A stretch of 64,000 bases of DNA from a virus. Its lineage: Duplodnaviria; Heunggongvirae; Uroviricota; Caudoviricetes. Positions 3,216 to 61,039 of this stretch are shown here, in pieces. Numbering within the stretch: the first letter of the stretch is position 1; each line of letters starts with the position of its first letter. Under the pieces are notes generated by a model. It searched no databases. It was not told the DNA's origin and worked only from the letters and a program-made list of their open reading frames with translations. Where the stretch lies: the IMG/VR virus record IMGVR_UViG_2513237368_000009, one strand, 5' to 3'. Both the position numbers and the translations under genes were made by a program.

Positions 3216-3288
3216 ATTTAAACCGAGTATTTTGTTTACACGAGGTCGATAATTTGATATACTATGCTTTGTTCAGGAGGTGTGGAAG

Positions 3289-24914: not shown

Positions 24915-25502
24915 ATGAATATCAAAAATGTATTAGGTAAAGCACAGGCAATTACAGGAAAGCGTGGTACAGGCAAGACTACAAAATTGATTGAATTAGT
25001 CAATAAACACGTAAAGCAAGAAGGATTAAATTACATCATTCTTACTTCTGACAGACCTATGGCGGATTCATTAGAGAGAAGAATAAACTCCTCTAATGAT
25101 GAATGGCACGAATATAAGATTTTAACTCTAAATGATTTTGTTGGAACTGTTGTACCGTCTGGGATAGAAAACATTGATATTTATATTGATGAAATTAATC
25201 TCATGGAAGTCGAGCTTTTATACAGACTTTTCAAAAAGTTGCCACCACTTTCTAGAATTATGGCATACACATATGATGACCCAGAGCCAATCGTGACAAA
25301 TAGGAAAGAAGACAATGAGATCACATTCCTTCTTAAAGTTCCACACGTCAACGACATGTATTACGCATTGCAACCAGATGGAGAAGTAATTGCGACAGAG
25401 TTAAATAGTTTCAGAAATTGCCTATATGAGTTTACGCAAAATGAGATTCACAATCATGGACTTGACAATGATTATGTCAAACAGATAGCAATTATCAAAT
25501 GA
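24915..25502 (+). CDS. P-loop NTPase, hypothetical
   Basis: Walker A AITGKRGTGKTTKL. Confidence 0.45.
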   Translation: MNIKNVLGKAQAITGKRGTGKTTKLIELVNKHVKQEGLNYIILTSDRPMADSLERRINSSNDEWHEYKILTLNDFVGTVVPSGIENIDIYIDEINLMEVELLYRLFKKLPPLSRIMAYTYDDPEPIVTNRKEDNEITFLLKVPHVNDMYYALQPDGEVIATELNSFRNCLYEFTQNEIHNHGLDNDYVKQIAIIK

Positions 25503-30641: not shown

Positions 30642-31315
30642 TTATACAAATGAGTTATATAATAATAACATGGTTGAGGTTGATAACAATATCCCCTTGG
30701 TTTGAATCCATAAAAATAGGCTTTTGATTAGTTCGATAGTCTAGCTTGTTGCATTAACAAATCTGAGTCGTAAAAAGCGTCAAAGAGGTCTAGTAACTAG
30801 AGAATGAGTACAATATTTGTCTACTCATAATATGATACTGACCAAGACGAATATTGTACAAAAAACCTTTGGCTGGCATCGGGCTAGGCTAGTAGAAGAT
30901 GTCCACTGTACAAGATGATAACTTGTACACTCCCTACTCATCAATAGGGTTATTCTGAATTACGACTCAGATACATAAAGGATTGGGAGATAGGGCGATA
31001 GTATTTGTCGCTGTCAACTATCTAAATAAAATGAGGAATTTAGTATTCTTCAAAGTCGCTTGGTTTTGTTAAGCATCCGTACCTTTTCCAAGGGACTGGC
31101 AGTGAATGTCATAGAATTGATTTGTTTCTAGAGCATATCAGTGGGAGCATCACCCACCATTCACATTAACACCTATTCTTTAGTGAGTACGAGTGTTGAG
31201 CGTTCATCAAATTGCCTTGCATGGCGAGAAAAATATGTTATCGGAGTGAGGCGGCAATACCAAAATTCAATGATGATAATATTGACAGAATTTTACTCTT
31301 TTGTCTGTCAAACAT
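30642..31315 (+). other. 0.67-kb ORF-free structured region downstream of promoter and upstream of tRNAs (candidate ncRNA/leader)
   Basis: no ORF over 60 aa on + strand; multiple hairpins, e.g. GAGTACAATATT..AATATTGTAC and GATAGT..ACTATC. Confidence 0.35.
31274..31288 (+). promoter_or_regulatory. partial motif copy (TGATAATATTGACAG) immediately upstream of tRNA-Arg
   Basis: 3' half of consensus. Confidence 0.35.
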
Positions 31316-31389
31316 AGTTGTGTAGCTCAATTGGATAGAGCAACTGACTTCTAATCAGTAGGTTATCGGTTCGAGTCCGATCATAACTA
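31316..31389 (+). tRNA. tRNA-Arg (anticodon TCT)
   Basis: manual fold: acceptor AGTTGTG/CATAACT, D-arm GCTC-AATTGGATA-GAGC, anticodon arm ACTGA-CTTCTAA-TCAGT, T-arm ATCGG-TTCGAGT-CCGAT. Confidence 0.75.
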
Positions 31390-31471
31390 TTACCAAAAAT
31401 AAAAATCATGGAGTTTTTGGTAATAATGCACGTTTTTACCCCAACAAGTATGAGTTCCAACAGCTCATAGT

Positions 31472-31542
31472 GCCTGATTAGTTCAATGGTAGAACATTGG
31501 TCTAGTAATCCAACGACAACAGTTCGATTCTGTTATTAGGCA
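31472..31542 (+). tRNA. tRNA (anticodon uncertain: AGT-Thr if loop CTAGTAA, or TAG-Leu)
   Basis: acceptor GCCTGAT/ATTAGGC, D-arm GTTC-AATGGTA-GAAC, T-arm AACAG-TTCGATT-CTGTT; anticodon stem has a T-T mismatch. Confidence 0.55.
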
Positions 31543-31547
31543 TTCGT

Positions 31548-32618: not shown

Positions 32619-32858
32619 GATGAAAATGGACAAGCCATTAATGGGAAATGCAAATTTTCCCTCATTCTTATTCCATAGCTTACTATGGAAAATAAAAATA
32701 TGCTTTGTCTCGTATTTTTATTTGTTACACTTCAACTTCAACGAAAAATAAGAACCGAACAGAGGTGATAGTATATGATGATCTTTACATAGTATCAGCA
32801 TTTAAAGTTGCTGGTACTATGTTTTTTTTTGACACAATAATAAAAAAGGGGCGTGTAT

Positions 32859-33500
32859 ATGGCTGTGATTGTATTAAGTGGAACTATTGGAGCGGGAAAA
32901 TCAAGTCTAACAGGAATGTTAGCAGAAAAATTAGGGACTACAGCATTCTATGAAAGTGTTGATGATAATGAAGTGTTACCTCTATTCTATTCAGATCCAA
33001 AGAAGTATGCTTTTTTATTGCAAATCTATTTTTTAAATAAACGTTTTGCATCAATTAAAGCTGCATTAAAGGACGATAATAACATTCTGGACAGGTCTAT
33101 CTATGAGGATAGCCTATTATTCCACCTCAATGCCGATTTAGGTCGTGCAAATCAGAAAGAAGTAGACGTTTATGACGAGCTGCTAGACAATATGTTGGAG
33201 CGTATCAGTAAATCAGATATTAATACTGCTCCAGACTTATTGGTTCATATTAGAGTATCATTCGATACCATGATGAAACGTATTGTTAAACGTGGACGTG
33301 AGTACGAACAGATTGAGAATGATCCAGACTTGTATGAATATTACAATGAACTGAATCGGAGATATGATAGATGGTACAATGATTTTGATATTTGTCCAAA
33401 AATTCAAATTGACGGAGACAAGTATGATTTCGTTGAAAACCCAGACGATGCTGAGAAAGTTTTAAAAGACATTGAAACGAAGTTAGCTGAAATCAGATAG
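32859..33500 (+). CDS. deoxynucleoside kinase (dAK/dGK/dCK family)
   Basis: Walker A LSGTIGAGKSS, FYESVDDNEVLPLFY, LDRSIYED (ERS-like) motifs; ATG 32859 after AAAAGGGG. Confidence 0.6.
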   Translation: MAVIVLSGTIGAGKSSLTGMLAEKLGTTAFYESVDDNEVLPLFYSDPKKYAFLLQIYFLNKRFASIKAALKDDNNILDRSIYEDSLLFHLNADLGRANQKEVDVYDELLDNMLERISKSDINTAPDLLVHIRVSFDTMMKRIVKRGREYEQIENDPDLYEYYNELNRRYDRWYNDFDICPKIQIDGDKYDFVENPDDAEKVLKDIETKLAEIR

Positions 33501-36632: not shown

Positions 36633-37160
36633 TTAACCAACATTTATCGTGGCAATCTTTAATGGACGGCCATGACCCAATCGACCAACTAGGCCAGATG
36701 CTAATGCAGTAAATAAATCATCACTAAATGTATTAATCTTGTCACCATCATTATCAAGTTGTTTAGCATATCCAATCTTCATCTTGTCACCATAACCATA
36801 ATTTGTTACACCTAGTGAACCATACAAATTAGCCAAGCCGATTGCCAACAACTCATCAATACCAAACTGGCCTAAATCATTTGCGATAATAGTCTGCATT
36901 GGTTCTGGCAATTTCTTCTCTGTTGCTAGGTTATCCAGCATTAATCCAGTTGCTACGATATTCAATACTTCACGTTTCTTAAACAGTTGATAGAAGCCGC
37001 ACCCGAAATCTTTGACGGTCTTTTCTGGAAAGTATTCATGTTCCATTTCGTACACAGCTTCACCAATTGTTAATGGTGTGATATTTTTCTTTTTCAATTC
37101 AATCATCACATAATCAAAAAGTTCTTGATCTGGATATTCCATATTCTTGTTTGCTACCAA
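36633..37160 (-). CDS. hypothetical protein
   Basis: ORF track. Confidence 0.45.
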   Translation of the reverse strand: MVANKNMEYPDQELFDYVMIELKKKNITPLTIGEAVYEMEHEYFPEKTVKDFGCGFYQLFKKREVLNIVATGLMLDNLATEKKLPEPMQTIIANDLGQFGIDELLAIGLANLYGSLGVTNYGYGDKMKIGYAKQLDNDGDKINTFSDDLFTALASGLVGRLGHGRPLKIATINVG

Positions 37161-40910: not shown

Positions 40911-41678
40911 CTACCTAGGTTCGATAAATAATGGTGTATTGTAGATAAGTTTGTCCATTAACTCGAAATCAGTCTTGGTCTCCATACTCTCGTACTTTTC
41001 TTTTAGAGCTTTATACAGTCCCTCTGGGTCTATAAAATGTAACAAATCTTTATCATAGCTATCAGTGTTTTTAACATACATATATCTAGCTATGCCAGAG
41101 ATTTCGACTTCTAAGAATGTATTCTCACAAACGTAAACCTCGTTTTCTAAGAAGGTATTGTTATAAACAGAAATTCCATATCTATACGCTTTAATTAGAT
41201 TAAATAATTCTTTACCAAAAGAACCGCTGCCATGGTACACCTTATCTGGTGACATCCTAGACAGGTTAGATTTAATCATTCCGACACATGACCCAACAAA
41301 ATGTTTTGAATCCATAGAAGATAGTAGTTCTCTATATTGATAGAGCATTTCAGCCAATGTACTGAAATATGTGCCAATAAATACTGGACGATTGAAAAAT
41401 ATCTCAATAAAATTAGGGTTAGTCTTCTTCAATAAAGAAAATAAATGAGTGATATCGAAACACTTAATTTCATAATTTTCACCTCTATATGTCTTACCCT
41501 TATTCCTATCACTCAGCACAAAGTCTTTCTTATTAGAAATAGTGAAAGCATAAAAATCATAATCTGAATTAAGATTGTTAGTTCCAGTTAATCTTGACCC
41601 CGTCAAATATAATAAAGCTAAATTAGGTATCTTCTCTCTAATGTCGTTCACAATCTTTTGCGGTACTGATACTTTCAT
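40911..41678 (-). CDS. minimal nucleotidyltransferase-fold protein (Pol-beta superfamily, GS...DxD)
   Basis: LTGSRLTGTNNLNSDYDFYAF near N-terminus; ATG 41678 after AGGAGGGG, 11 nt after tdk stop (track start 41798 overlaps tdk). Confidence 0.45.
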   Translation of the reverse strand: MKVSVPQKIVNDIREKIPNLALLYLTGSRLTGTNNLNSDYDFYAFTISNKKDFVLSDRNKGKTYRGENYEIKCFDITHLFSLLKKTNPNFIEIFFNRPVFIGTYFSTLAEMLYQYRELLSSMDSKHFVGSCVGMIKSNLSRMSPDKVYHGSGSFGKELFNLIKAYRYGISVYNNTFLENEVYVCENTFLEVEISGIARYMYVKNTDSYDKDLLHFIDPEGLYKALKEKYESMETKTDFELMDKLIYNTPLFIEPR

Positions 41679-41688
41679 GTTACCCCTC

Positions 41689-42279
41689 CTATTTATGTGC
41701 CCCAGCATTAGTGGGACAATGCCAATGTCTACGACAAACAGAGATATACTCTTCATCTCCGATTTGTACTTGTTCACCTTCATAAACTGGCTTACCATTA
41801 ACCATTCGTAAATTCATTGTTGCTTTCTTATTACAATATCTGCATACAGTTTTGATTTCTTCGAGCTTATCAGCAAGTGTCAAGAGTGCTTTGCTACCCT
41901 CAAATAGATTATTACTAAAGTCATTTTTCAGACCATAACAGATAACTGGTATACCAAACAAATCCACAATGCTGGCTAGTTCCTCAACCTGTTTACTTGT
42001 CAAGAATTGAGATTCGTCAATCAAGATACATGATGGATCAATTTTCAGCATATCTTCATCTATGATATCTCCCATAATGCTTGTTTCATTGCTTACGGGT
42101 ATTGCCTCATGAGAGATACCAATGCGGCTGCTAATGCAACCTACACCCGACCTAGTATCTAATGAACTCGTCAATAGAATAACTTTCTTACCACTCTCAC
42201 GATAATTATGAGCAACCTTCAGCAACTCTACACTCTTACCACTGTTCATAGTTCCATATCTAAAAAACAATTGTGCCAT
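41689..42279 (-). CDS. tdk: thymidine kinase
   Basis: [20 protein letters not shown]-loop, C-terminal Cys cluster CRYC..C..H. Confidence 0.8.
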
Positions 42280-42473: not shown

Positions 42474-42746
42474 TTAAACTGACAAAATTTCTAATTCTCT
42501 ACCAAAGTGATAACCATTAACAGAAAAGTTATCTTTGCCAACCTCTCTTGCAATCCATTTTCCGTACACATAATTATCATTTTTGACAAGAAAACTCTCT
42601 TCCACTTTCACATCTGGAACATTGACAAAGTTATTTATTCTATACGGTTGTACACGATCGCCTTCGTAAATTTTCTTCCCATTTTTGTCTTTGATTCCAG
42701 TGTATCTTCCAAAAGCCCCATGAGTTTTATTCATTTTTTCCTCCAA
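42474..42746 (-). CDS. YopX-family protein (paralog 1)
   Basis: KDKNGKKIYEGDRV motif. Confidence 0.45.
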   Translation of the reverse strand: MEEKMNKTHGAFGRYTGIKDKNGKKIYEGDRVQPYRINNFVNVPDVKVEESFLVKNDNYVYGKWIAREVGKDNFSVNGYHFGRELEILSV

Positions 42747-43115
42747 TTATTCGACAATCTTTAAATCATAACATCCATATTCACTAAGAGGTAAATTCCC
42801 AAGCATAAGAGACGTTTTTGTTGACCAAATTTTACCGATTCTATGATCCATTAGTTTAGGAGTTAAGTTAGACCAAAATTCAACATTATCTCCTTCATAA
42901 ATCTTTTTGCCACTTTCAATATCTTTTCGTCCTGAATATTGTTCAAGAATTACATCATCATTTTTTACATTCCAAGTTTCATTTTTGCCTTTAACAATCA
43001 CGTAGACCGAACTAGGAGTTCCATCTGTGTCCCTATTTTGGATTGCTGTCACATAGTCCGATCTAACATTCAACCTTTTATTAAATGCTCTAAAAATCAT
43101 TCTTTCGTTCATCAT
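42747..43115 (-). CDS. YopX-family protein (paralog 2)
   Basis: SGKKIYEGDNVEF motif. Confidence 0.45.
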   Translation of the reverse strand: MMNERMIFRAFNKRLNVRSDYVTAIQNRDTDGTPSSVYVIVKGKNETWNVKNDDVILEQYSGRKDIESGKKIYEGDNVEFWSNLTPKLMDHRIGKIWSTKTSLMLGNLPLSEYGCYDLKIVE

Positions 43116-43465
43116 GATACCTCCAAGAGTTCTGGGTTCTGGTGGATGTTTCCCACTACTTCTCCCTTACGAACTGCATAATCAACACGTACCCAGCCTG
43201 TTACGAAACTAGCATCTTCTTGCGACCATTTGACAACTAGATATTCAACATCACCTGTACTATTAACATATTTGATAATGTCGCCTTCATAGATTTCTTT
43301 GTCATTCTTATCTCTGTGACCTATATATTGTTCCCAAGTAGCGGTATCATTTCCGACTAAATCATCAACTAGTCCTCTAAAACTACCAAAGTTAAAACTT
43401 TCAATAGACATGTATTTATATTCCCCTAAATCTTCATGCCATGCTCTGAAGTTAATTTGTCTCAT
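43112..43465 (-). CDS. YopX-family protein (paralog 3)
   Basis: DKNDKEIYEGDIIKY motif. Confidence 0.45.
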   Translation of the reverse strand: MRQINFRAWHEDLGEYKYMSIESFNFGSFRGLVDDLVGNDTATWEQYIGHRDKNDKEIYEGDIIKYVNSTGDVEYLVVKWSQEDASFVTGWVRVDYAVRKGEVVGNIHQNPELLEVS

Positions 43466-45600: not shown

Positions 45601-45624
45601 TTGTAATATTACTACTATTAAATT
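45601..45624 (-). promoter_or_regulatory. conserved motif copy (minus: AATTTAATAGTAGTAATATTACAA)
   Basis: reverse complement read; second copy 40 bp from previous. Confidence 0.5.
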
Positions 45625-45889
45625 ATTCTTTAGCTTTTCTATTCCACTCTGTAATCTTGTCTGGTCTTAAATTACTCCATTCATCTACGATTTCATCTTT
45701 TTTAAGATCATAGACTTGCACAAAAGGCATAGTTCTTACTTCTTTTTCATTTTTAAGCCAATCAATGATATCACTGCTAAGTTTGACTGGCTTAAATGGT
45801 AGTTTTAAACGTTCCATGGTAATTTTGCACTTTATGCAATTGTCTTTCCATATAACTGTTGCCTGATACCTATTTTCTTGTTCTGTCAT
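45623..45889 (-). CDS. NrdH/glutaredoxin-like small redoxin
   Basis: VIWKDNCIKCKIT CxxC motif, 88 aa. Confidence 0.45.
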   Translation of the reverse strand: MTEQENRYQATVIWKDNCIKCKITMERLKLPFKPVKLSSDIIDWLKNEKEVRTMPFVQVYDLKKDEIVDEWSNLRPDKITEWNRKAKE

Positions 45890-45898
45890 ACAGCACCT

Positions 45899-46231
45899 CT
45901 ACTTTTTCCTATACATTAATTGTAATTTTCTTCTACGATCTGTTATTAATTCCCCCACCAATTCTAACGCTATCTGAGAATCAGCAACATTTTTATGCCA
46001 TACAAAAGTATGTGTCTCAATAATTTTCTTATTTTTAGTATCATATAAATACCAATGTACAATTCTCTTATCTGTATCACCAATCATTAATGAATAATCA
46101 GTATATGATACTCTATAAACCTCACGCAAACTACTATATATATCTTTTAATTCATTTTTTGCTTGTTTTTTGTGCTGTACAATATCATATAGCAATAATA
46201 ATGCAAGCAAAATAATCACAGCTTCAGTCAT
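45899..46231 (-). CDS. hypothetical protein (N-terminal TM)
   Basis: ORF track. Confidence 0.4.
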   Translation of the reverse strand: MTEAVIILLALLLLYDIVQHKKQAKNELKDIYSSLREVYRVSYTDYSLMIGDTDKRIVHWYLYDTKNKKIIETHTFVWHKNVADSQIALELVGELITDRRRKLQLMYRKK

Positions 46232-46260
46232 TCAGTCACCTCTTTTTAAAAAATCATTAT

Positions 46261-46449
46261 CTATTCTCTTACTATTTTGACATCATCACTAAAAACATAT
46301 GATTTACCACCCAACGTGATTTGCGTGCCGGCCTTAATGTGTATGGCACTATTCTCTGCTATAAACAGTTTGGGTGTCTCAACAATGAAATCTATATTAT
46401 TAGTTTCAATATTAGTGGCACTAATATTGTCTTTTATCTCCATACTCAT
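46261..46449 (-). CDS. hypothetical protein
   Basis: ORF track. Confidence 0.35.
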   Translation of the reverse strand: MSMEIKDNISATNIETNNIDFIVETPKLFIAENSAIHIKAGTQITLGGKSYVFSDDVKIVRE

Positions 46450-46892
46450 TCTCCTTTATATATAATTAACGCTGATGGAAAAGGTGCAGCATCTTTTTGT
46501 TCTCCATCAATTGCAAATTTTAACCTACCACGTATAAACTTGATCTCTGCTTTGCCAAAAATATAGTCGTGCCAATAACTAGTATCTGTCCTTGATGGAA
46601 TTAACAATACTAAATATTGATTATGCTTTAGTTTTGTCTCTGCCGCCTTTTTAACCCATAATTTAAGCTCTCTGCCGTATGGAGGATTGAGGAATAAATT
46701 TCCAGAAAGACCCCCCCAATCAATTGATAAAGAGTCATCTTTCTCTGTTAAATGATTGGTACACAGGGCATTATCATCTGTTGATGCTAAGTCCCAATTA
46801 AAGTGAAACACCTTATTAATCTTGTTAAAGAAGTCCCTAGGCGTTTCCCAATATTGCTTATCTGATGTAAACATGCTTTTATTTAATACCAT
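46446..46892 (-). CDS. small phage-type DNA N6-adenine methyltransferase (Dam-like)
   Basis: FLNPPYG motif; about 150 aa. Confidence 0.55.
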   Translation of the reverse strand: MVLNKSMFTSDKQYWETPRDFFNKINKVFHFNWDLASTDDNALCTNHLTEKDDSLSIDWGGLSGNLFLNPPYGRELKLWVKKAAETKLKHNQYLVLLIPSRTDTSYWHDYIFGKAEIKFIRGRLKFAIDGEQKDAAPFPSALIIYKGE

Positions 46893-46909
46893 AAGTCACC
46901 TCTTCAATT

Positions 46910-47494
46910 TTAATAAATAGCGCCATTGTAGAAGTTAAACTCTGGTTTATTAAAATCGAAATTAGCTAGTTCGCTCATTTTCAAAACTAAGTCTGCTCCA
47001 CCAAATGACATTAAATTAATCGGTTCTCCATATTCTTCATCTGGAATTACTAAGACAACATATTTACCAAGCGCCTTAGCATATCCAATTTCCATTCCAC
47101 ATCCAATATCTTCTTCTGTTGGTAGGTAACAGAACATAGCTATATCTGATGTTTTAATTCCCACAAGATCTCCGTTGAATGTTGCCATCGCCCATTCTTT
47201 ATCATGAAGATATTCAGGATGTTCATCTACACGAATACCTTTGTACTGGTGTTTCAAAGGAACATATGAATTTTCTGAATCCAAAGTTGCATTATCTTCT
47301 AATGCTTTAGAAAATTCATCATATGCCTTTTCTTGCTTAAGAGTGAACCAGCCAGCTCCATGGTAATAAGTCTTTTGAGGTACAGGCACTACAAATTCAC
47401 GAACACCCACTTTTATTCCCTTTGAATCAATTTCCTCAAAAGGTTCTTTCACAATCTCTTTGACACGAGTATATTTTGTGCTTACCTTTACCAT
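46910..47494 (-). CDS. nucleoside 2-deoxyribosyltransferase-like protein
   Basis: YHGAGWFT (YLAGPFF-like) and GMEIGYAKALGKYVVLV with candidate catalytic Glu. Confidence 0.45.
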   Translation of the reverse strand: MVKVSTKYTRVKEIVKEPFEEIDSKGIKVGVREFVVPVPQKTYYHGAGWFTLKQEKAYDEFSKALEDNATLDSENSYVPLKHQYKGIRVDEHPEYLHDKEWAMATFNGDLVGIKTSDIAMFCYLPTEEDIGCGMEIGYAKALGKYVVLVIPDEEYGEPINLMSFGGADLVLKMSELANFDFNKPEFNFYNGAIY

Positions 47495-48073
47495 TTATAC
47501 TTCTCCTTCTTTCTCTACAATTTGATTTAACATTTCAATGCTTTCGTCCAATAGTCCTTTGACATTTTCAATGACATAATCACACTTGTCTTTATTTTTC
47601 ATGTCAGAATAATAAAGACCTAAACGTTTATTGATATTCCAACTTGAATCGCCACGATTAATTAACATGTCTTTATTGTCGTTATATGGGGAATAGATAA
47701 ATACCGAAACTGTATCAGGATATAATTCTTTGATTTGTTCATACCCATGATAAGTTACAACCGCATAGGCGTTATTGTCCTTTGTTTTTTCTTCAATTTC
47801 ACTTAATTCTAACCCATAGTAATGATCTCCATAACGATCTTCTTCAGCAAATTTCTCTGCTCTTGCCATATTAAGAAATACCAGTTTTGAAACAAAATGA
47901 TAATCAACGCCATCTTTTTCATGCGTTCTTTTGTCTCTTGTAGTTGTGCTAACCAATTCCTTTTCTTTCCCGAAAACACTACTACCAATAGTTGTCTTAC
48001 CAGATCCAGAAGTCCCAATTAAACAAAATAATTTACCTTTACTCATTTTTATTACTCTCCAATCTCGATTCAA
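47495..48073 (-). CDS. gmk: guanylate kinase
   Basis: GTSGSGKTT P-loop and STTTRDKRTHEKDGVDYHFVS signature. Confidence 0.65.
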   Translation of the reverse strand: MNRDWRVIKMSKGKLFCLIGTSGSGKTTIGSSVFGKEKELVSTTTRDKRTHEKDGVDYHFVSKLVFLNMARAEKFAEEDRYGDHYYGLELSEIEEKTKDNNAYAVVTYHGYEQIKELYPDTVSVFIYSPYNDNKDMLINRGDSSWNINKRLGLYYSDMKNKDKCDYVIENVKGLLDESIEMLNQIVEKEGEV

Positions 48074-48314
48074 CTCTTGCTAACATCTCTTCAATAATTG
48101 CTCTAGATTCATCACTCATGTCACGTTTTTCCAATTGTTTCTTGAAACCGTCACGAGCGCTTTCCAAATATTCATCACCTATTTCGATTAAGCTGTTAGC
48201 AAACTTTAATTCTGCTGGCTTATTGAATAAAAGTAAGATACCCATATCGTTTAATGTCTTTGGTTCAAGTTCATGAACCAATATTGAGATTGCTTGTTCT
48301 GTACTTTGTTTCAT
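48039..48314 (-). CDS. hypothetical protein
   Basis: ORF track. Confidence 0.35.
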   Translation of the reverse strand: MKQSTEQAISILVHELEPKTLNDMGILLLFNKPAELKFANSLIEIGDEYLESARDGFKKQLEKRDMSDESRAIIEEMLARVESRLESNKNE

Positions 48315-48477
48315 TTATTTCCCTCCTAATTTTCAAGTGTTACATCTTTGTATACGTCAACATGGACTTGATTAACTTTTAAATAGACATCGTCACCAGA
48401 ATCAAAATAGGTAACGTTTTCGTCTCCGAGTCCATCTTTAACTAGTTCACTTAGCTTGTCCCTCAATTCCTTAACTG

Positions 48478-49050
48478 TCATATTCGTTCCACCTCGAAAA
48501 CTGGCGCTGGAATAAATTGTTTGAAAACACTTGGTACATTTTCTAATTCTTTAGCAGTAAAAGATTGTTTCAACCTTGTGTTTTCGGGACGATATGAACA
48601 AGCAAAAAATTTGTTGTCCACACCCAATGTCAAATATTGTTGTCCATTGTCACTAACCAAACCTAATAGTGGAATCATAATTCTAGGCTCATTATTCTCA
48701 CCTGTGATTCTTTCAATAATTTCATTTGAAGGAACAAAATCTAATTCTGCTGGATTGATATTCTTATCATCAATGAGAATGTCATATGATAATTTACGAG
48801 AATCTACACCTTTATAAAACTTCAATACTCTAGTTAGATTTTCATTAACTTTATCGAACTTTAGTCCTTGTTGTTTACACCACTTAACGGCATCTTTCAG
48901 TAAAGAACCATTGCGACAAGTCCACAATATTAATTCATTACCCTTATTCTTTAATTTGATAAGTGCCTTAATCAAAGGCTTGTTAGCAACACCTATTTCT
49001 GGGTATGCTTCTTCACACAATGTTCCATCAAAATCTACTGCAATAATCAT
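48478..49050 (-). CDS. HAD-superfamily phosphatase (nucleotidase/PNK-phosphatase-like)
   Basis: IIAVDFDGTL motif I; ATG 49050 after GGAGGAAAGAC. Confidence 0.5.
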   Translation of the reverse strand: MIIAVDFDGTLCEEAYPEIGVANKPLIKALIKLKNKGNELILWTCRNGSLLKDAVKWCKQQGLKFDKVNENLTRVLKFYKGVDSRKLSYDILIDDKNINPAELDFVPSNEIIERITGENNEPRIMIPLLGLVSDNGQQYLTLGVDNKFFACSYRPENTRLKQSFTAKELENVPSVFKQFIPAPVFEVERI

Positions 49051-49064
49051 GTCTTTCCTCCTAA

Positions 49065-49089
49065 ATGTCAATATTACTACTATTAAATT
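49065..49089 (-). promoter_or_regulatory. conserved motif, exact copy on minus strand, abuts SD of HAD gene
   Basis: minus: AATTTAATAGTAGTAATATTGACAT then TTAGGAGG. Confidence 0.6.
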
Positions 49090-49256
49090 GGTTCGATTGT
49101 CTTGCTATTGAGATCAGCAAAATACAAAGCGTCCCTACTATCCATAAAAGTAAATTCCTTATCTTCACCATCTGGCAGTATGTCGTGAATGTGTTTAATG
49201 TTGTTCTTCGCTGCAAGTTTCTTGACAGCTTTCAGTTCTGAATGTTTGACTTCCAT
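49083..49256 (-). CDS. small hypothetical protein (57 aa, not in track)
   Basis: RBS TTAGGGG then ATG 49256; motif copy upstream. Confidence 0.35.
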   Translation of the reverse strand: MEVKHSELKAVKKLAAKNNIKHIHDILPDGEDKEFTFMDSRDALYFADLNSKTIEPI

Positions 49257-49290
49257 TTCTAAACCCCTAACTTTATTTTATATACTATAT

Positions 49291-49315
49291 TATAATATTA
49301 CTACTATTAAAAATC
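49291..49315 (-). promoter_or_regulatory. conserved motif copy (minus: GATTTTTAATAGTAGTAATATTATA)
   Basis: reverse complement read. Confidence 0.5.
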
Positions 49316-50660
49316 AAGACTCATAGCTAATATCGTCAATATTTTTATCCGAACGTACACTCTTGAACGTTGGGAATCTCAGTGACTTACCACCATTTTG
49401 ATTTTCACTCTCTTCAAAATACTGAACATCAATGATTTTACCGATAATATCTTCAGGGTTATTCCAGTATTTAACTCTATCATCTTCAGTAAAACCAGAT
49501 CCAACTTGAACCTCAAAATCTTTGAATTGAATAATAACTCCACCTAGCTTATTCTTATTTGCTCCCGTTCCCTCATAAACGTCTTTTACGAGTACGTCTG
49601 CATTAAAGAATTGCTTAATCTTCAATAGGTCTGGTGTACGTTTTGTCTTATAAAAGCTGTCATTAAAGTTGAGCATGAGTCCTTCCCAACCTAACTTCTT
49701 AACTTTCTCATCTTGCAGTTTTGCAATAATGCTAGTATCATTTCCAGAATACAATGTAGGAACGATTTTTAATTTGAAATCTGTGGCAACCATATCATAA
49801 CTTGATGTGAATGTTACATATGATTCAGCCAACTTAGATTTTCTGTCAAGATAAGCTAGTTTAGATTCGCCCTCAAAAAATTCATCAAGTGGTAACCAGT
49901 CAAATACATTAAATAAAATACCAGTTTTATCAGCTTTGTCATTTTTCAATACTTTTGCTGTTGCTCTGAATAGGTCTTTAGTTTCGAGATTATCCTTATT
50001 ATCCAGAACTAGTTCACCATCTAATACTACTGGCTTACCTTGATTGATAATATTTGCCAATACCTCAACTTGTTTTCCCAATAGGTCAAGTCCAACATAT
50101 CTAATTCCTTGTCGTGTGAAGAATGCGACCTCGACACCATCACAGATAGCAACACAACGGTGTCCATCTAGTTTTTGTGTGATACTAAAATCTCTTCCAC
50201 TTTCAACTCTGTCTGGATATTTGTTCATAGGATAAGCCAACTGGCAACTGAACTCCTTGATAAAGCCTTTACACAATGCTTTGTTAATCGACTTAGCTGT
50301 GATCCCAACTTTGATATTCTTAGCAAAAATGTTAAGGATAAATTGTTCAACGCTTTCTGAATACTTCTTAGCGAAATTTTTAATGTTCGATACTACTTGT
50401 AATTTACCAGTATTGTTTTCTTCAACATATTCCATTAATTCAAGAATGTTGTTAAAATCTTGATCTGGTTCAACCAAATCAGTTACCGACATTTTCTTTG
50501 TACTGATACCTGTACGGATAAAATCGTCAAACACAAATTTCAAGACTTCTTTGAATAATATGTTATCCTCATTTTCTTTAATGATAGATACCTTTTCATT
50601 TTTTGAAGATGTTTCAGAGATACGCTGGAAGATAGTTGCTATTTCGATAATGTTTTGCAT
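49314..50660 (-). CDS. ATP-dependent DNA ligase
   Basis: motif I KLDGHR (KxDG), EGLMLNF motif IV, K-rich motif V. Confidence 0.6.
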   Translation of the reverse strand: MQNIIEIATIFQRISETSSKNEKVSIIKENEDNILFKEVLKFVFDDFIRTGISTKKMSVTDLVEPDQDFNNILELMEYVEENNTGKLQVVSNIKNFAKKYSESVEQFILNIFAKNIKVGITAKSINKALCKGFIKEFSCQLAYPMNKYPDRVESGRDFSITQKLDGHRCVAICDGVEVAFFTRQGIRYVGLDLLGKQVEVLANIINQGKPVVLDGELVLDNKDNLETKDLFRATAKVLKNDKADKTGILFNVFDWLPLDEFFEGESKLAYLDRKSKLAESYVTFTSSYDMVATDFKLKIVPTLYSGNDTSIIAKLQDEKVKKLGWEGLMLNFNDSFYKTKRTPDLLKIKQFFNADVLVKDVYEGTGANKNKLGGVIIQFKDFEVQVGSGFTEDDRVKYWNNPEDIIGKIIDVQYFEESENQNGGKSLRFPTFKSVRSDKNIDDISYES

Positions 50661-51361
50661 TGTGATTTCTCCTTTTTTATGTCAAATTTATTTTCAATTC
50701 TTGTCTTAGCTACGTCAAAATACTCTTCGTTTAGCTCTATGCCAATAAATCTACGTTTTAGGTTTAAGGCTGCTATGCCTGTTGACCCACTACCCATGAA
50801 ACAGTCCAATACTATGTCATTCTCATTACTGTGTCGTAATATCAATTCTTCCATTAGTTCTACAGGCTTTTGTGTTGGATGAAACTTATTCTTACCAGAT
50901 ACAATAGGATATCTTAATTCAGAACGGTCATACTTATCTGATTGTCTATTGAAAGTCCATTTGCCCTTCTTAATAGCTACTATTGCAAATTCATAATCAA
51001 CAATATATCTTCTATCTCTATTTCTTGGCATTGGATTGGTCTTTTCCCATCTAATAAGGTCTTTTACTATCAATCCTGATTTTTCTAATTCTTTTGCGAT
51101 ATCCCCTAAATTTTTCCAATCATTAAACACGATCAACGTACCACCACGTTTAAGGGTACGAGCAGCATCACTTATCCATGTGAGAATGTCTGCATCATGA
51201 TCCCATGTACCAAAATCAATGCTACTTCTACCCATAGTGTCAAAGTTGTTATCTTTGGCAATATTATATGGAGGGTCTGTTAGAACTAAGTCAATGCTTT
51301 CATTGGGTATCTTTTTCATTGCCACAAGACAATCGCCATTTTGCAAGGCATATTTACTCAT
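50639..51361 (-). CDS. DNA methyltransferase (N6-adenine/N4-cytosine, DPPY class)
   Basis: LVLTDPPYNI and FMGSGSTGIAA (AdoMet motif I). Confidence 0.65.
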   Translation of the reverse strand: MSKYALQNGDCLVAMKKIPNESIDLVLTDPPYNIAKDNNFDTMGRSSIDFGTWDHDADILTWISDAARTLKRGGTLIVFNDWKNLGDIAKELEKSGLIVKDLIRWEKTNPMPRNRDRRYIVDYEFAIVAIKKGKWTFNRQSDKYDRSELRYPIVSGKNKFHPTQKPVELMEELILRHSNENDIVLDCFMGSGSTGIAALNLKRRFIGIELNEEYFDVAKTRIENKFDIKKEKSQCKTLSK

Positions 51362-52151
51362 GAACCAACTCCCCCTTCGCCTTTATGTCAATATTACTAC
51401 TATTGATACGCTCTTTAGCAATGTAAAAATAATCATCTTCCTTTTCAATACCCAAAAATCTACGACTAGTATTTAAACAGGCGACACCAGTTGAACCTGA
51501 ACCCATACAGTTATCTAACACTAGGTCATTTTCATTTGTATAAGTTTTTATGAGATATTCAAGTAATTCAACGGGCTTTTGGGTCGGATGCAGCCTATCC
51601 TTGTTTACAATGTTAGATACAGTAACTATACTTGTGGGATATTTCATATTGCTATCCTGAGCTTTTGTATAATTCTTGTGATCATAACTTCCGTACACTT
51701 TGCTATTGTCCATACTATTGCCTTTGTTTTCCCATTTCTTACCTCGTGAATGACTTGGCTCTCCACCTTCTGTCATTTGAGGATTATAGATTGGCAATTT
51801 TTTGTAGAACACAAGAATATCCTCATGTTTGCGCAAAGGCATTCGATTTGCATTAAGAAAACCTGTTGTCCTAACTTTGTCCCAAACCAACGTGTATCTA
51901 TACATTCTCTCATTTGATAAGATTAACTTAGCAGAGAAAGCGTTCTGACCAAACAGTACGATAGCACCATTTTCCTTAATGACTCTTTTATACTCTTTCC
52001 ATAATTCATCAAAAGGAATAATGCTATCCCATTTATTATGAGTAACCTTACCATACGGTAGATCACATAGAATCATGTCAATACTTCCATTAGGTATCTT
52101 CTGCATTACTTCAAGACAATCACCCTTTTGTAAGGCATATTTATTACTCAT
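51354..52151 (-). CDS. DNA methyltransferase (second, DPPY-like class)
   Basis: ILCDLPYGKV and CMGSGSTGVAC motifs. Confidence 0.6.
   Translation of the reverse strand: MSNKYALQKGDCLEVMQKIPNGSIDMILCDLPYGKVTHNKWDSIIPFDELWKEYKRVIKENGAIVLFGQNAFSAKLILSNERMYRYTLVWDKVRTTGFLNANRMPLRKHEDILVFYKKLPIYNPQMTEGGEPSHSRGKKWENKGNSMDNSKVYGSYDHKNYTKAQDSNMKYPTSIVTVSNIVNKDRLHPTQKPVELLEYLIKTYTNENDLVLDNCMGSGSTGVACLNTSRRFLGIEKEDDYFYIAKERINSSNIDIKAKGELVHE
51385..51408 (-). promoter_or_regulatory. conserved motif, exact copy, inside 3' end of upstream MTase gene and just upstream of downstream MTase SD
   Basis: minus: TATCAATAGTAGTAATATTGACAT then AAAGGCGAAGGGGGAG ATG. Confidence 0.55.
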
Positions 52152-52527
52152 CTTTGGCTTTCCTCTTGCTTTCTACATAATCATTAATTGTTTGCGCATA
52201 AACAATTTGTTTCTGCAATTCACCGTACATTAGTTCTAGAGGTTCGCCATCAAAGTTATAGTCCAGAACAAAGAAGAGGACTGCGTCTTTTCTTGCTTGT
52301 TTGCCTAGTCCGAAAAGAACCATTTTATTGGTTTTGCAGATTTCTTGTGCGACACTCTCAAAGTTACTGTAAGTCTGCTTGTAAGAGCTGTACGCAATCT
52401 GTTTCTTGCATAAAAGTAAACGTGTTGTCTTAATACCTTTCATGACTTCAACCAGTTTCTCGTTTGTGCTTTTCTTAAAATCCAAATATTTAATTGGCTT
52501 CAATGTCAAATCATCTAAAACTGTCAT
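52144..52527 (-). CDS. hypothetical protein
   Basis: ORF track. Confidence 0.4.
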   Translation of the reverse strand: MTVLDDLTLKPIKYLDFKKSTNEKLVEVMKGIKTTRLLLCKKQIAYSSYKQTYSNFESVAQEICKTNKMVLFGLGKQARKDAVLFFVLDYNFDGEPLELMYGELQKQIVYAQTINDYVESKRKAKDE

Positions 52528-55500
52528 TTAACCTCACCTTTTCTAATAAATTTAATCTTTTGCAACCATATATCCTTGTCTGTTGGGTGTTTAGTCCACA
52601 CTCCGTCAATCAACACTGATTTAGGTTTCTCTTCATACTGTTGTATCTCGATAAGATCTCCAGCCTTAAACGGTACTTCCTTATAAGCTCTGCTACCTAT
52701 TAACACTTGTACTTCGCTACCAGTCTTAATAGAATAGAATATTGCTCTAGTTCTAGTCCTTCTCACATCTGCATCAACAACAAACGCATACTTAGCTGGT
52801 AGACTTGCGTTTACTAAATTACATTTACCTGTATAGAACAATTCATATTCCAACTTGGTAATAAATGGATAATCGCTATCTTCTAAGTTGTCTTCGTATT
52901 CAACACACATGAGGTACTTCTTAGCCTTGCCAGACAATGTCTTATTCTTTGGCTTATAGTTCTTCATGAAATAGTCGTATATCTTTTGTAGCTTTTCAGA
53001 CTTCCCAAAATCAACGAAATAATCTAATCTGATAAGACTTTCTATCTTGGTACGATTAATTGCATACTTGCTCTGATGTAACGATATCTCCTCGGCTTTT
53101 AATTGCTTGTCCATTGCCTTTAATTCTTCTTCTGACTTCGTTCTGTAAATTGTCTCAATATCAACGTTGTCACCATTTTCTAAGGTAATATATGAGTTAT
53201 CATTAATCTTCAACAACAATTCAACAAAGCTACTGTAGTCTTGTAATTGAGATATCTCATATAAATCGTCTCCAACCTGAGCATTGTTCCCCTTAATCGG
53301 CTCAGTTCCACTATATATAGAATTGTCGTCCCTATTCATGAAATACAAACCTTTAGATTTACCAAACTTAGTTTGTTTTAAATCAATACCATGTGCATCC
53401 GCATATCTTGTAACCTTATTGATCTTGTCTTGATTGCCACCCCATATTTCAAAAGCGGCGGTACAAAATTCAAGGGGATAATAATATCTTAACCACGTTG
53501 CGATATATCCAATGTATGAATATGCCATTGAATGATTAACTGAAAAACCATAATTAACAGCATCCATAAACACCTGTATAAATCTATCCGCAACTTCATT
53601 TGCATGTTCTTCAGTATCGCCGTATTCTTTAATCATTGTTTTGACAAAAGAAGGCTTAATCTTTGGTACTTCCTCGTCCATAATCGACTGGAGTTTCTTA
53701 CCGATCCCACGTCTAATCAAATCTGCTTGTCCATAATTCCAACCACAAAACTTAACCAGAAATTCAATTAATTGTTCTTGATATACTAAGTTACCTAGGG
53801 TTGGAGCTAAGAAATCATTTAATGCTTTATGACCATTATCTGTAAATCGACCTTCTGTTACAGATTCGAGGTAACTTGCCCCACTAGGTCTTTGCGCTGC
53901 ATTAGCAAGACTCAACAGATCAATGAATTTGATATCGGGTACTTTTTCTTTAATTCTGTCAATCGTTTCATCAGAGAACAAATGTCTTAATATGCTACCC
54001 GCACGCTCTCCTTCAAATTGAAAGATACCAATGTTCGATTCTGTCATTGACTTCCAAACTTTTTCATCTTGAAAATCAATAACTTCTGAACTATCAGGCG
54101 TTAAGAATGGTAAACCAGCCAATTCACAAGTTTTTGTAATCAGACCTAAGTTATCCAAACCTAAAACATCAAATTTCGTAAAGTTACAATAATCAATTTC
54201 TTTCATGTACACCTGTGTTACTGGATAGTCCCAACCACTAACGGTTTGAGTTCCCATTACATCATCAATAGGTTCTGTGCTAACGACAATTCCACAAGCA
54301 TGTCTACCAAATGAATCAATGACACCAACTATCTCCTTGGCTGTATCAAACAATTCTTTATGAGCTTGATATATTGAATCTGGATAGTTGTCTTTAATAT
54401 CTATCTGATTACATATCCCCTGAATTTCAAATGGAGATTTATCTTTGTAACCGTCCATTCCTTTTGCAATAACCTTGATTGCTCCTTTTAGACCATAAGT
54501 GTTAGCCGTCATGATAGAGGCACAATACAAGTTAGGGTTAGTTAATAGCCACTTTTGTACTTCGACTTTGTCTTTTCCTGACCAATCATGATCAATATCT
54601 GCGAGACTGATTCGCTCAGGGTTCATGAATCTCTCAAAGTTGAGTCCATGTTTAATTGAATCCATTTCTGTTGAATGCAGTAGATAAGCTATAAGACTGC
54701 CACTTACCGAACCACGGCTATACCCGACATTTCTTCCTTGTTTCTTAGCCTCTTGAATCATTAACCAATCTGCAAGCATATAACTGATTGCTCCGTTATG
54801 CTTATATACCTTGTATTCATGGTTTACACGTTTCATGTATTTCTCTAGTTTTTCTTTAGGGAACTTCAAGATTCCCCTATCTTTCATACCTTTAATAATT
54901 AACTCTTTGAACTTTCCCTCTTCGTCTTTGAAAAGATGTGGATATTTATGACTTCTATCCAACTCGAAATCTTCAACTTGACTCTCAATTTCCATTGTTG
55001 CGTCCAATGCTTGCTCAACAATATCTTCGTCAACAATTCCTTGCTGTCTGAAAGATTCCTTCATTTCGTCATAGTCTTTACACCACAACTCAAACTTGTC
55101 ATCGCCCTCGTATGAAGACCCTTTACCATTCTTAATCATTAACCTAATGTCATTATGTCTTGGGTTAAGTGCATGAATATCATTAGATGCTATGAGCTTT
55201 AAGTCATATTTTTCGGCAAGTTTCAATAACAACTTGTTGTATTCTTTCTGATCTTCGTCAAGGTGAGGTTGTATTTCAAGATATACACGTTCCTTATTAT
55301 TTATGATAAAGTCCATCCATTGATTGAAATACTCTTTGTTACCCTCGACCTTCTTGTCGCTTTGGTGGTTATAATGAGGACTGTTTTGCCACAATGCCCC
55401 AGCCAGACAAGCTGTTGTAACAAAGATATTGTCACTAGTCTTGACTAAATCACTGAACAGAACTCGTGGTTTATAATAGAAATGCCCGTCTTTTCTGTTG

Positions 55501-55823
55501 AAAGATGCAGAAGACAATTTGTTTATTTCCTTTACACCTTCATAATTCTTAGCAATCAAGATTGTATGATAACCACGATTTTTTTCTTCTAAATCCATGG
55601 TCACGTATGCTTCAATTCCGTGAATATACTTCATACCACTATCATTTATAGCCATTTTGTGTTTCATCCAACGTGCAACATTACCGTGATTTGTAATACA
55701 TACCGCTGGTAGTTCATGTTCCTTGGCATATTTAACGTAATCTGCATATTGAGTGACCACTTCAAAATATCCACCAGCATTAGATTCATCGGTATGTTGA
55801 TGTAAACTTACCCATTTCTTCAT
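52524..55823 (-). CDS. dnaE: DNA polymerase III alpha subunit-like (DnaE-type, PHP domain) replicative polymerase
   Basis: N-terminal PHP motif VSLHQHTDESNAGG; 1099 aa. Confidence 0.6.
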   Translation of the reverse strand: MKKWVSLHQHTDESNAGGYFEVVTQYADYVKYAKEHELPAVCITNHGNVARWMKHKMAINDSGMKYIHGIEAYVTMDLEEKNRGYHTILIAKNYEGVKEINKLSSASFNRKDGHFYYKPRVLFSDLVKTSDNIFVTTACLAGALWQNSPHYNHQSDKKVEGNKEYFNQWMDFIINNKERVYLEIQPHLDEDQKEYNKLLLKLAEKYDLKLIASNDIHALNPRHNDIRLMIKNGKGSSYEGDDKFELWCKDYDEMKESFRQQGIVDEDIVEQALDATMEIESQVEDFELDRSHKYPHLFKDEEGKFKELIIKGMKDRGILKFPKEKLEKYMKRVNHEYKVYKHNGAISYMLADWLMIQEAKKQGRNVGYSRGSVSGSLIAYLLHSTEMDSIKHGLNFERFMNPERISLADIDHDWSGKDKVEVQKWLLTNPNLYCASIMTANTYGLKGAIKVIAKGMDGYKDKSPFEIQGICNQIDIKDNYPDSIYQAHKELFDTAKEIVGVIDSFGRHACGIVVSTEPIDDVMGTQTVSGWDYPVTQVYMKEIDYCNFTKFDVLGLDNLGLITKTCELAGLPFLTPDSSEVIDFQDEKVWKSMTESNIGIFQFEGERAGSILRHLFSDETIDRIKEKVPDIKFIDLLSLANAAQRPSGASYLESVTEGRFTDNGHKALNDFLAPTLGNLVYQEQLIEFLVKFCGWNYGQADLIRRGIGKKLQSIMDEEVPKIKPSFVKTMIKEYGDTEEHANEVADRFIQVFMDAVNYGFSVNHSMAYSYIGYIATWLRYYYPLEFCTAAFEIWGGNQDKINKVTRYADAHGIDLKQTKFGKSKGLYFMNRDDNSIYSGTEPIKGNNAQVGDDLYEISQLQDYSSFVELLLKINDNSYITLENGDNVDIETIYRTKSEEELKAMDKQLKAEEISLHQSKYAINRTKIESLIRLDYFVDFGKSEKLQKIYDYFMKNYKPKNKTLSGKAKKYLMCVEYEDNLEDSDYPFITKLEYELFYTGKCNLVNASLPAKYAFVVDADVRRTRTRAIFYSIKTGSEVQVLIGSRAYKEVPFKAGDLIEIQQYEEKPKSVLIDGVWTKHPTDKDIWLQKIKFIRKGEVK

Positions 55824-59358: not shown

Positions 59359-59467
59359 TAATAAGAAACTCTTTCTTTTTACGTTCTTTTGCATTGATAA
59401 GTTTTCTATTCATGAACATACCTCATTTATAGTGTACTTTAAAAGCCTGTTACTTTTGCAGAGTAAA

Positions 59468-59539
59468 CAGATCATGTTGGAATCGAACCAACGTCAAGAG
59501 TTTTGGAGACTCCTATTCTACCAATTGAACTAATGACCT
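59468..59539 (-). tRNA. tRNA-Trp (anticodon CCA)
   Basis: manual fold on minus strand: acceptor AGGTCAT/ATGATCT, D-arm GTTC-AATTGGTA-GAAT, anticodon arm GGAGT-CTCCAAA-ACTCT, T-arm GTTGG-TTCGATT-CCAAC. Confidence 0.65.
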
Positions 59540-59893
59540 ATATAGTTACAAGGCTGCTTTTGAGGTCTATTACCTTGTTCGCAGCATTCAACGGAACTTG
59601 CGTATTCTAATTCAAAAACATGTAGTATTTGAAATGTGACCCACATTACTGATCACCCTCGCACCCTGTAATTATAAAAGAATTAATTTATAGTCGTACT
59701 TTAATCGACTTTTATCCAGCCAATAAATGCAAGTTCTATGGATTCACTCCTAACTTGCAATGCTCAGGGAAGGATTTGCACCTACATAGCCACAATGACG
59801 ACAGATTTACAGTCTGCGGAGTTCTCTAATACTCAGCCCAAGCGTGTTATTCTTATTTATTTGTTTCCAATTTTGAATCTAAAATCTGAGTAC

Positions 59894-60970: not shown

Positions 60971-61039
60971 TGTGACATATGAGAATCGAACTCATATCAC
61001 TTGTGAAGGTCAAGTGCGCTACCATTACGCCAATGTCAC
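60971..61039 (-). tRNA. tRNA-like (69 nt), anticodon loop ACCTTCA (CTT-Lys reading but C33/C37 non-canonical)
   Basis: perfect acceptor GTGACAT/ATGTCAC, D-arm GCGT-AATGGTA-GCGC, stem CACTTG/CAAGTG, T-arm ATGAG-TTCGATT-CTCAT. Confidence 0.45.

Follow-up and report, generated by a model that had tools for sequence, protein, structure and literature searches.

We analyzed a stretch of 64,000 nucleotides from a tailed virus (Caudoviricetes; IMG/VR record IMGVR_UViG_2513237368_000009), here called the window, and within it a gene block at 45623-52151. The window is part of what is probably a plasmid-prophage, an SPbeta/Tsamsa-like phage element of ~126.6 kb in Liquorilactobacillus mali DSM 20444. 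The block encodes a nucleoside 2-deoxyribosyltransferase (NDT), a guanylate-kinase-family protein (GMK), a HAD-superfamily protein, a small redoxin, a DNA ligase and three DNA methyltransferases (MTases), and we predict that it takes part in the salvage of canonical deoxynucleosides for replication. Three sister loci were compared with it: L007 and L008, from L. hordei, and the more diverged L010.

Genes of the block

The block and the genes at its head comprise the following open reading frames (ORFs; lengths in amino acids, aa).

45623-45889, minus strand: glutaredoxin/NrdH-like small redoxin with a CIKC motif and a thioredoxin fold (phrog_22 "thioredoxin domain", E 7.8e-9)
45899-46231, minus strand: conserved 110-aa ORF with a hydrophobic N-terminus, no Pfam or PHROG match, 95-97% identical in L007 and L008
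46261-46449, minus strand: 62-aa ORF conserved in L008
46446-46892, minus strand: small phage Dam-type N6-adenine MTase with the motif LFLNPPYG (PF05869, E 2.7e-29, 102.5 bits against a cut-off of 28.1)
46910-47494, minus strand: class II NDT with a 37-aa N-terminal extension (PF05014, E 4.7e-19, 69.1 bits against a cut-off of 28.8)
47495-48046, minus strand: guanylate-kinase-family (d)GMP kinase, GMK (PF00625, E 1e-23, 84.5 bits against a cut-off of 25.2)
48039-48481, minus strand: two small ORFs of 91 aa and 51 aa without family matches, 48% identical in L007
48478-49050, minus strand: capless HAD-superfamily phosphatase with the pattern DFDGT...DD and a C-terminal extension of ~85 aa (PDB 2obb, E 1.6e-19; no Pfam match)
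49083-49256, minus strand: 57-aa ORF, 88% identical in L007
49314-50660, minus strand: ATP-dependent DNA ligase (PF01068, E 5.7e-15; PF14743, E 4.6e-11; phrog_114, E 6e-85)
50639-51361, minus strand: orphan beta-class N6-adenine MTase B1, M1.HpyAVI/"DpnA"-like, with DPPY and FMGSGSTG motifs (PF01555, E 9.7e-48, 163.5 bits)
51354-52151, minus strand: orphan beta-class MTase B2 with CMGSGSTG and a motif IV of DLPY (PF01555, E 4.6e-33, 115.5 bits)
52144-55823, minus strand: 127-aa ORF and DnaE-type DNA polymerase III alpha (PolIII-alpha, 52524-55823; PF07733, PF02811, PF17657; 94% identical in L007), the head of the gene string

All eight genes named in the initial annotation of the sequence lie on the minus strand at the positions given there. 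They had been described as contiguous; the named genes are indeed tightly packed, with five small ORFs of no known function between them. Between PolIII-alpha (55823) and 45623, neighbouring genes either overlap or leave no more than 57 nt between them, and overlaps of 4-22 nt tie PolIII-alpha, the 127-aa ORF, B2, B1 and the ligase together. The NDT start codon abuts the GMK stop codon, and the NDT ATG is preceded, at a distance of 8 nt, by the strong Shine-Dalgarno sequence GAAGGAG. GMK and the HAD protein probably start at internal ATGs (183 and 190 aa). The 110-nt gap after 45623, just downstream of the block, holds the best promoter-like site of the region; a scan of the region for promoters and terminators gave no excess over shuffled expectation. 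The core of ligase, HAD protein, GMK, NDT, 110-aa ORF and redoxin is kept in the sister elements, at 83-99% identity in those of L. hordei and at 55-67% in L010.

By its sequence, the gene at 46910-47494 encodes a bona fide class II (purine-pyrimidine) NDT. Residues 38-194 align without gaps to all 157 residues of the Lactobacillus leichmannii enzyme (LlNDT; PDB 1F8X) at ~70% identity (E 6e-71), and the purine-only enzyme PDT (1S2D) matches at just E 4.3e-7. We take the catalytic residues of LlNDT (1F8X/1F8Y) to be the nucleophile Glu98 with Tyr7, Gln46, Asp72, Asp92, Asn123 and the carboxylate of Tyr157. The counterparts of Tyr7, Phe13, Gln46, Asp72, Asp92, Glu98 and Asn123 are Y44, F50, Q83, D109, D129, E135 and N160, all of which are invariant in an alignment of 13 cellular and phage NDTs. 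The C-terminal residue, Y194, is nearly invariant in the same alignment and corresponds to the Tyr that completes the neighbouring active site. The initial annotation had proposed an NDT here and left its catalytic Glu to be located; the PF05014 and 1F8X matches bear out the call, and the nucleophile is E135. An NDT-fold defence effector or a dNMP hydrolase (DNPH1/Rcl) was also considered for this gene and rejected, since the protein resembles a canonical NDT over its full length, at 70% identity. The closest cellular homologues (62-70% identity) are chromosomal, in Ligilactobacillus, Liquorilactobacillus and Lactobacillus.

The 37-aa N-terminal extension (47384-47494) is missing from the cellular NDTs. 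The NDT of L007 (171 aa) has a shorter one, and other metagenomic NDTs, of 201-222 aa, carry unrelated extensions that are partly coiled-coil-like.

The neighbours of NDT could be assigned with differing precision. In GMK, an alignment to 3tr0 has the P-loop and the GMP-site residues S-TTR-R-E-DY and E...YG conserved, and homologues occur in Tsamsa/PBC2-type Bacillus phages. The ligase label is confirmed by PF01068 together with PF14743; the protein is 92% identical in L007 and 36% identical to the ligase of the Bacillus phage Izhevsk. The HAD protein has D6, D8, T10, T44, K86, D94 and D95 invariant across 36 homologues, and its AF2 model (core pLDDT >90) gives as top Foldseek matches 2obb (E 3e-9) and 1xpj, which are uncharacterised. 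We regard it as a candidate 5'-nucleotidase on the basis of its homology to Izhevsk_174, annotated as "putative 5'-nucleotidase" (E 2e-10), and of one relative that is fused to MazG. A substrate taken from the further Foldseek matches (sugar-phosphate phosphatases, Pnkp1 and phage AfhF) was set aside, as these lie at E ~0.02 and are too weak to use.

The redoxin is 95-99% identical in the L. hordei sisters and 55% identical in L010, with the CxxC motif kept. NrdH proteins end in a WSGFRP-like motif; the corresponding stretch is WSNLRPD here, WSNFEYD in L010 and WNDFQVS in other homologues. The protein has no Pfam match, and its match to the NrdH of PDB 4fiw is at E 0.9.

The proposed salvage route and its alternatives

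Four further genes of the window are predicted to act together with the block. They had been pointed out in the initial annotation, and family profiles agree with it in each case.

3280-3921, plus strand: T4 gp1-type deoxynucleoside monophosphate (dNMP) kinase-like protein, DNMK (PF21448, 30.9 bits against a cut-off of 27.1; phrog_139, E 1.3e-21)
23352-24176, plus strand: PnuC-family transporter (PF04973, E 3.7e-24, 86.1 bits; TIGR01528, 98.7 bits against a cut-off of 42.45)
32853-33500, plus strand: deoxynucleoside kinase (dNK) of the dAK/dGK/dCK family (PF01712, E 2.1e-41; PDB 2jaq/2jas, E ~4e-27)
41689-42279, minus strand: thymidine kinase (TK; PF00265, E 1.4e-47)

NDT-based deoxynucleoside salvage is a hallmark of lactobacilli. 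Among 50,697 phage records, NDT homologues occur just in phages of Lactobacillus sensu lato, Aerococcus, Leuconostoc and Weissella. The gene lies near PgpA and dNK in phage Ldl1 and near PnuC and a glutaredoxin in ATCC 8014-B2; in Lb338-1 a deoxyguanosine kinase (dGK) adjoins it, with PnuC and TK also present. Contigs in IMG/VR repeat combinations of NDT with dNK, TK, PnuC, glutaredoxin and PgpA, and the kit of NDT, dNK, TK, PnuC, redoxin and PgpA recurs in at least three unrelated lineages of Lactobacillaceae phages. On the chromosome of L. apodemi (Ligilactobacillus), a dNK gene is directly upstream of the NDT gene, and its product is 53% identical to the dNK of the window. Because the kit recurs in unrelated Lactobacillaceae phages and the dNK-NDT pair is found on a Ligilactobacillus chromosome, we assign it to host-type salvage. 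The block is a host-type deoxynucleoside salvage module of a kind that the literature has treated before; in Kyrkou et al. 2019 (PMC6669764), phage NDT, phosphatase and dNK genes are read as a complex for recycling the nucleotide pool.

The window has its own homologue of PgpA (phosphatidylglycerophosphatase A), at 36633-37160 on the minus strand. In unrelated Lactobacillus phages (Ldl1, Lb338-1 and the loci L013, L015 and L022) a PgpA gene is again found no more than ~10 kb from NDT.

The PnuC-family protein is a candidate carrier of nicotinamide riboside (NR) or, by analogy with PnuN, of deoxynucleosides. For PnuN of L. acidophilus a role in deoxynucleoside transport has been predicted, according to the passage of PMC7749635 that cites Rodionov & Gelfand 2005. 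Homologues of PnuC lie within ~1-2 kb of NDT in Lb338-1, 8014-B2, L013-L015 and L017, a recurrent proximity that, as context, favours the earlier prediction of deoxynucleoside import by some members of the PnuC family. Downstream of PnuC is a gene for a 195-aa P-loop protein (24915-25502, plus strand) that could be a trapping kinase for the transported substrate. We dropped this idea, as the protein has just sub-threshold kinase-like matches and no phage homologues.

The redoxin is conserved beside NDT although ribonucleotide reductase (RNR), thymidylate synthase, dihydrofolate reductase (DHFR) and dUTPase were not detected. The tblastn searches covered the window, its flanks and the sister loci, equivalent to ~101 of 126.6 kb of the element. 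Queries with the NrdI, NrdE, NrdF, thioredoxin, dUTPase, thymidylate synthase, DHFR, PRPP synthase and NAPRT of Izhevsk found no match in these ~101 kb, and Pfam likewise detected no NrdE, NrdF or NrdI in the window or flanks.

From this gene content we propose the following route. Deoxynucleosides would come from breakdown of host DNA, possibly after dephosphorylation of dNMPs by the HAD phosphatase, or would enter from outside, perhaps by way of the PnuC/PnuN-like transporter. The class II NDT would exchange their bases, so that deoxyribose is shared out over all four. From the resulting deoxynucleosides dNK and TK would make dNMPs, GMK and the gp1-like dNMP kinase would carry these to the diphosphates, and host enzymes would complete the deoxynucleoside triphosphates (dNTPs). 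The small redoxin probably feeds the RNR of the host, because no phage RNR was found. We infer the substrates of the HAD and PnuC-family proteins, the partner of the redoxin and the direction of flux.

We consider it likely that three things hold together: that the kit is a host-style salvage route supplying the four canonical dNTPs, that the block serves nucleotide supply within the replication operon of the element, and that its MTases are exchangeable, orphan anti-restriction cargo inserted in that operon and not mechanistically coupled to salvage.

Several observations weigh against this reading. The GMK had been labelled a guanylate kinase, and the family, P-loop and GMP-site residues agree with the label; its score with the equivalog model of cellular Gmk (TIGR03263) is 110.6 bits, under the cut-off of 160.45, and in the alignment to 3tr0 the motif YG[T/S] is replaced by YGL, with Leu for the Ser/Thr that contacts guanine. 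The HAD phosphatase proposed in the initial annotation has HAD motifs I-IV and a Rossmannoid core; with the curated BT0820 family (NF046079) it scores 101.9 bits, under the cut-off of 165, and the match is limited to the N-terminal 100 residues. Its fold searches lead to uncharacterised proteins and then, at E ~0.02, to sugar-phosphate and polynucleotide phosphatases. The redoxin, which had been called NrdH-like, is a CxxC protein of thioredoxin fold with NrdH as its best NCBIfam family (TIGR02194, residues 2-69 of 72); the score of 20.9 bits is below the cut-off of 85.75, and no genes for a class Ib RNR were found beside it, in the window or the flanks. The PnuC-family protein passes the NR-transporter model TIGR01528. 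The Dam-type MTase scores 91.1 bits with the Dam model TIGR01712, just under its cut-off of 97.05. GC content is presumably ~36% in the host and is 33.5% in the element, so that rebalancing of a GC mismatch is a weak rationale for the kit. The searches behind this reading covered ~101 of the 126.6 kb of the element.

Two other explanations are compatible with canonical DNA. In the first, the genes do not form one pathway: the HAD protein, as a 3'-phosphatase, and the ligase would heal and seal DNA ends, NDT and GMK would act independently, and PnuC would serve NAD+ salvage. The HAD protein is capless (C0), like phosphatases that act on macromolecules, is encoded two genes from the ligase and has Pnkp1 among its weak fold matches; this Pnkp1 match is weak in both measures (E 0.02, TM ~0.35), and the closest annotated phage homologue is named a 5'-nucleotidase, with the MazG fusion pointing the same way. 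For PnuC, the equivalog match, its position 23 kb away on the opposite strand and its company of NadR/NAPRT in related phages (PMC7685451; PMC6669764) fit NAD+ salvage. In the window, NadR, NAPRT and a Nudix gene were not found, and in at least six other phage loci PnuC is close to NDT. We think this explanation unlikely.

In the second, which we judge less probable still, the kit serves mainly in counter-defence, restoring dNTP pools under nucleotide-depletion immunity (of the dCTP deaminase/dGTPase type) or shutdown of host RNR. The kit bypasses RNR, and RNR, thymidylate synthase and DHFR, which were not found in the ~101 kb, are present in the Bacillus relatives. The element is also under strong defence pressure, as seen in its avoidance of restriction sites and its variable MTases. 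The proposal is purely inferential, and the distribution of the kit follows host taxonomy (the NDT-using lactobacilli), not defence content.

Host-style salvage is the preferred reading. The finding documents a complete host-mimicking salvage kit, with NDT, dNK, TK, GMK, a dNMP kinase and a candidate nucleotidase and importer, on an undescribed family of Liquorilactobacillus elements.

Methylation, site avoidance and DNA bases

The three MTases (METHYLTRANSFERASES) are orphans, as a nuclease domain was found in none of the neighbouring ORFs. The small Dam-type enzyme with its NPPY motif is as first described (PF05869). The other two had been described as DPPY-class; both are beta-class enzymes of PF01555, B1 has DPPY and B2 has DLPY. 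B1 matches the structures of M1.HpyAVI of H. pylori (PDB 5HEK/5HFJ) at E 8e-61. B2 is more divergent, with weaker PDB matches (E 9e-20), and its DLPY is kept in the 50%-identical orthologue of L010.

The MTase complement is not constant among the sister elements: it may be three genes, a single one, or two together with a frameshifted Dam. In L007 the B1 slot is filled by one MTase of another type (37% identical to B1), and Dam and B2 are missing. L008 lacks Dam. In L010, B2-like and B1-like genes are on the opposite side of the ligase. The Dam orthologue of L010 (L010:10490-10907) aligns in two reading frames and is either a frameshifted pseudogene or the product of a sequencing error. Since the MTases vary between sisters while the salvage and replication core is kept, they appear to be accessory anti-restriction cargo and not a part of the salvage pathway. 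The presence of Dam showed no clear relation to the frequency of GATC among the sisters: L007 is without Dam, yet its ratio of observed to expected (O/E) GATC sites is 0.84.

The element avoids restriction sites strongly, and its avoidance of palindromes is bimodal. We compared 41 six-base palindromes with at least five expected copies against 3,015 non-palindromic hexamers. O/E is below 0.3 in 15 of the 41 (nine are absent) and in 0.6% of the non-palindromes (Mann-Whitney p 1e-9). In the window CCGG, CGCG and GAATTC have one copy each, where 23, 19.5 and 21 would be expected, and a further 37.7 kb of the element beyond the window shows depletion of the same sites. Which sites are avoided varies among the sister elements (compared in L007, L010 and L028-L033). 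GAATTC is at normal frequency in L007, and GATC is absent against ~60 expected in L029, L030 and L033 (distant relatives, 22 kb). Site avoidance looks like the dominant anti-restriction strategy of the element. The heavy anti-restriction methylation suggested by the initial annotation thus holds in part: the MTases are plausible anti-restriction enzymes, and "heavy" is an overstatement given their variable complement and the dominance of site avoidance.

Phages with wholesale base replacement generally lack such site avoidance in comparative genomics. Host-specific avoidance of palindromes indicates DNA that Type II enzymes can cut, which argues against bulk replacement of a base. As indirect evidence, the avoidance data are compatible with low-level or site-specific modification.

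The gene content agrees with canonical DNA. Scans of about 60 window ORFs with Pfam, PHROGs and NCBIfam found no thymidylate-synthase-like protein or dCMP hydroxymethylase, no PurZ, no QueC-E or DpdA, and no sugar or amino-acid transferase. Enzymes that exclude canonical dNTPs (dUTPase, dCTPase, MazG, DatZ) were not found in the window or flanks, and our literature search found no link between NDT and hypermodified phage DNA. We predict from the sequence that the DNA of the element has a canonical base composition.

The initial annotation had read the combination of NDT and kinases as a toolkit for noncanonical dNTPs, in which NDT would place a noncanonical base on deoxyribose and the kinases would raise it to a dNTP for the phage DNA. 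In its favour, NDTs show promiscuity in vitro towards base analogues, and no member of the kinase set is lacking. The guanine-contact position of GMK is altered, the NDT extension is unexplained, many small ORFs are unannotated, and the gene searches covered ~101 of the 126.6 kb of the element. We nevertheless abandon this proposal as highly improbable: the NDT active site is identical to that of the housekeeping enzyme, the same kit is found in a bacterial chromosome, the window and flanks have no gene to make an unusual base or nucleotide or to exclude a canonical dNTP, the host-specific site avoidance and ordinary m6A-type MTases imply normal DNA exposed to Type II enzymes, and literature precedent was not found. 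Its narrower form, in which the extended NDT, the divergent GMK and the dNMP kinase channel an unusual base derived from the host or a small ORF into a dNTP that partly replaces a canonical nucleotide, is very doubtful as well; if true, it would be the first base-exchange route (transglycosylation at the nucleoside level) to modified phage DNA. We see no sign of new DNA chemistry in the block.

The element and related systems

The element consists of two contigs (94,695 and 32,010 bp) that coordinate mapping links at either end into a circle, and chromosomal flanks are absent from both. A single contig of 126,646 bp with an identical HAD protein agrees with this join. The element encodes maintenance-type genes (two tyrosine recombinases and, in the flanks, a HigB/HTH toxin-antitoxin pair and a SieB-like gene), replication and recombination genes (the DnaE-type polymerase, RecD2, a DnaB-like helicase, a primase-like protein and RusA) and phage-type genes (SPbeta-type YopX and YorH, four tRNAs, and a GH25/LysM endolysin followed by giant structural genes). 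Other features of the window are as follows.

295-1344 and 1430-2668: two tyrosine recombinases, the second MrpR-like
27363-28514, plus strand: TnpB / IS605 OrfB-type gene (Cas12f1-like TNB, OrfB_IS605 and HTH domains), inserted in the early region
31315-31543 (plus strand), 59467-59540 (minus strand) and 60971-61039 (minus strand): four tRNA genes, Arg-TCT, Thr-AGT, Trp-CCA and Lys-CTT
40911-41678, minus strand: RlaP-like / Pol-beta-family nucleotidyltransferase, directly downstream of TK
42474-43465: triple YopX array upstream of TK

Searches for near-identical DNA in INPHARED (phages) and PLSDB (plasmids) gave no match to the element, and in a distant DNA search the MTases alone matched. 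The polymerase shares ~38% identity with its counterparts in Clostridioides pCD1602_4 and in large Bacillus siphophages. Sister elements of 122-129 kb occur in L. hordei assemblies and in IMG/VR. This undescribed plasmid-prophage-like family, with elements such as this one of ~126.6 kb and striking restriction-site avoidance, is arguably of more interest than the salvage block.

Among known systems, the dNK/NDT/TK salvage of lactobacilli shares with the window the same kinase families and an NDT (LlNDT) of ~70% identity with the same catalytic residues. The genes described here differ in being phage-borne and spread over 45 kb instead of one operon, in the 37-aa extension of NDT, and in the addition of GMK, the gp1-type dNMP kinase and the HAD phosphatase.

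The modules of Lactobacillaceae phages (Lb338-1, Ldl1, ATCC 8014-B2 and the Iacchus/Dionysus group) have NDT, dNK, TK, a PnuC-like protein, glutaredoxin and PgpA near replication genes, as here. In contrast to them, the L. mali element has a DnaE-type polymerase and an SPbeta/Tsamsa-like backbone, its NDT is 40-62% identical to theirs, GMK and a BT0820-type HAD protein adjoin NDT, and three MTases are inserted.

The MTases resemble known orphan phage enzymes (T1-type Dam, PF05869; M1.HpyAVI/"DpnA"-like, PF01555) in their NPPY and DPPY motifs and the missing cognate endonuclease, and tandem beta-class MTases are also found in Staphylococcus phages. B2 differs from these in its DLPY motif IV.

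The Tsamsa-like Bacillus siphophage Izhevsk shares PolIII-alpha, ligase, GMK, TK and the small HAD "5'-nucleotidase" with the element at 26-38% identity, and Tsamsa-like phages also share its RecD2, DnaB-like and primase modules. Izhevsk carries NrdIEF, thioredoxin, dUTPase, thymidylate synthase, DHFR, PRPP synthase and NAPRT (PMC7685451). None of these genes turned up in the ~101 kb searched of the L. mali element, which has NDT instead. In the Liquorilactobacillus lineage the salvage enzymes appear to have been retained and a host-type NDT gained, and the parts examined lack the de novo genes for RNR, thymidylate synthase, DHFR and dUTPase. With these genes in the Bacillus-infecting relatives and a salvage kit here, the two offer one example of auxiliary metabolism in phages that follows the physiology of the host.

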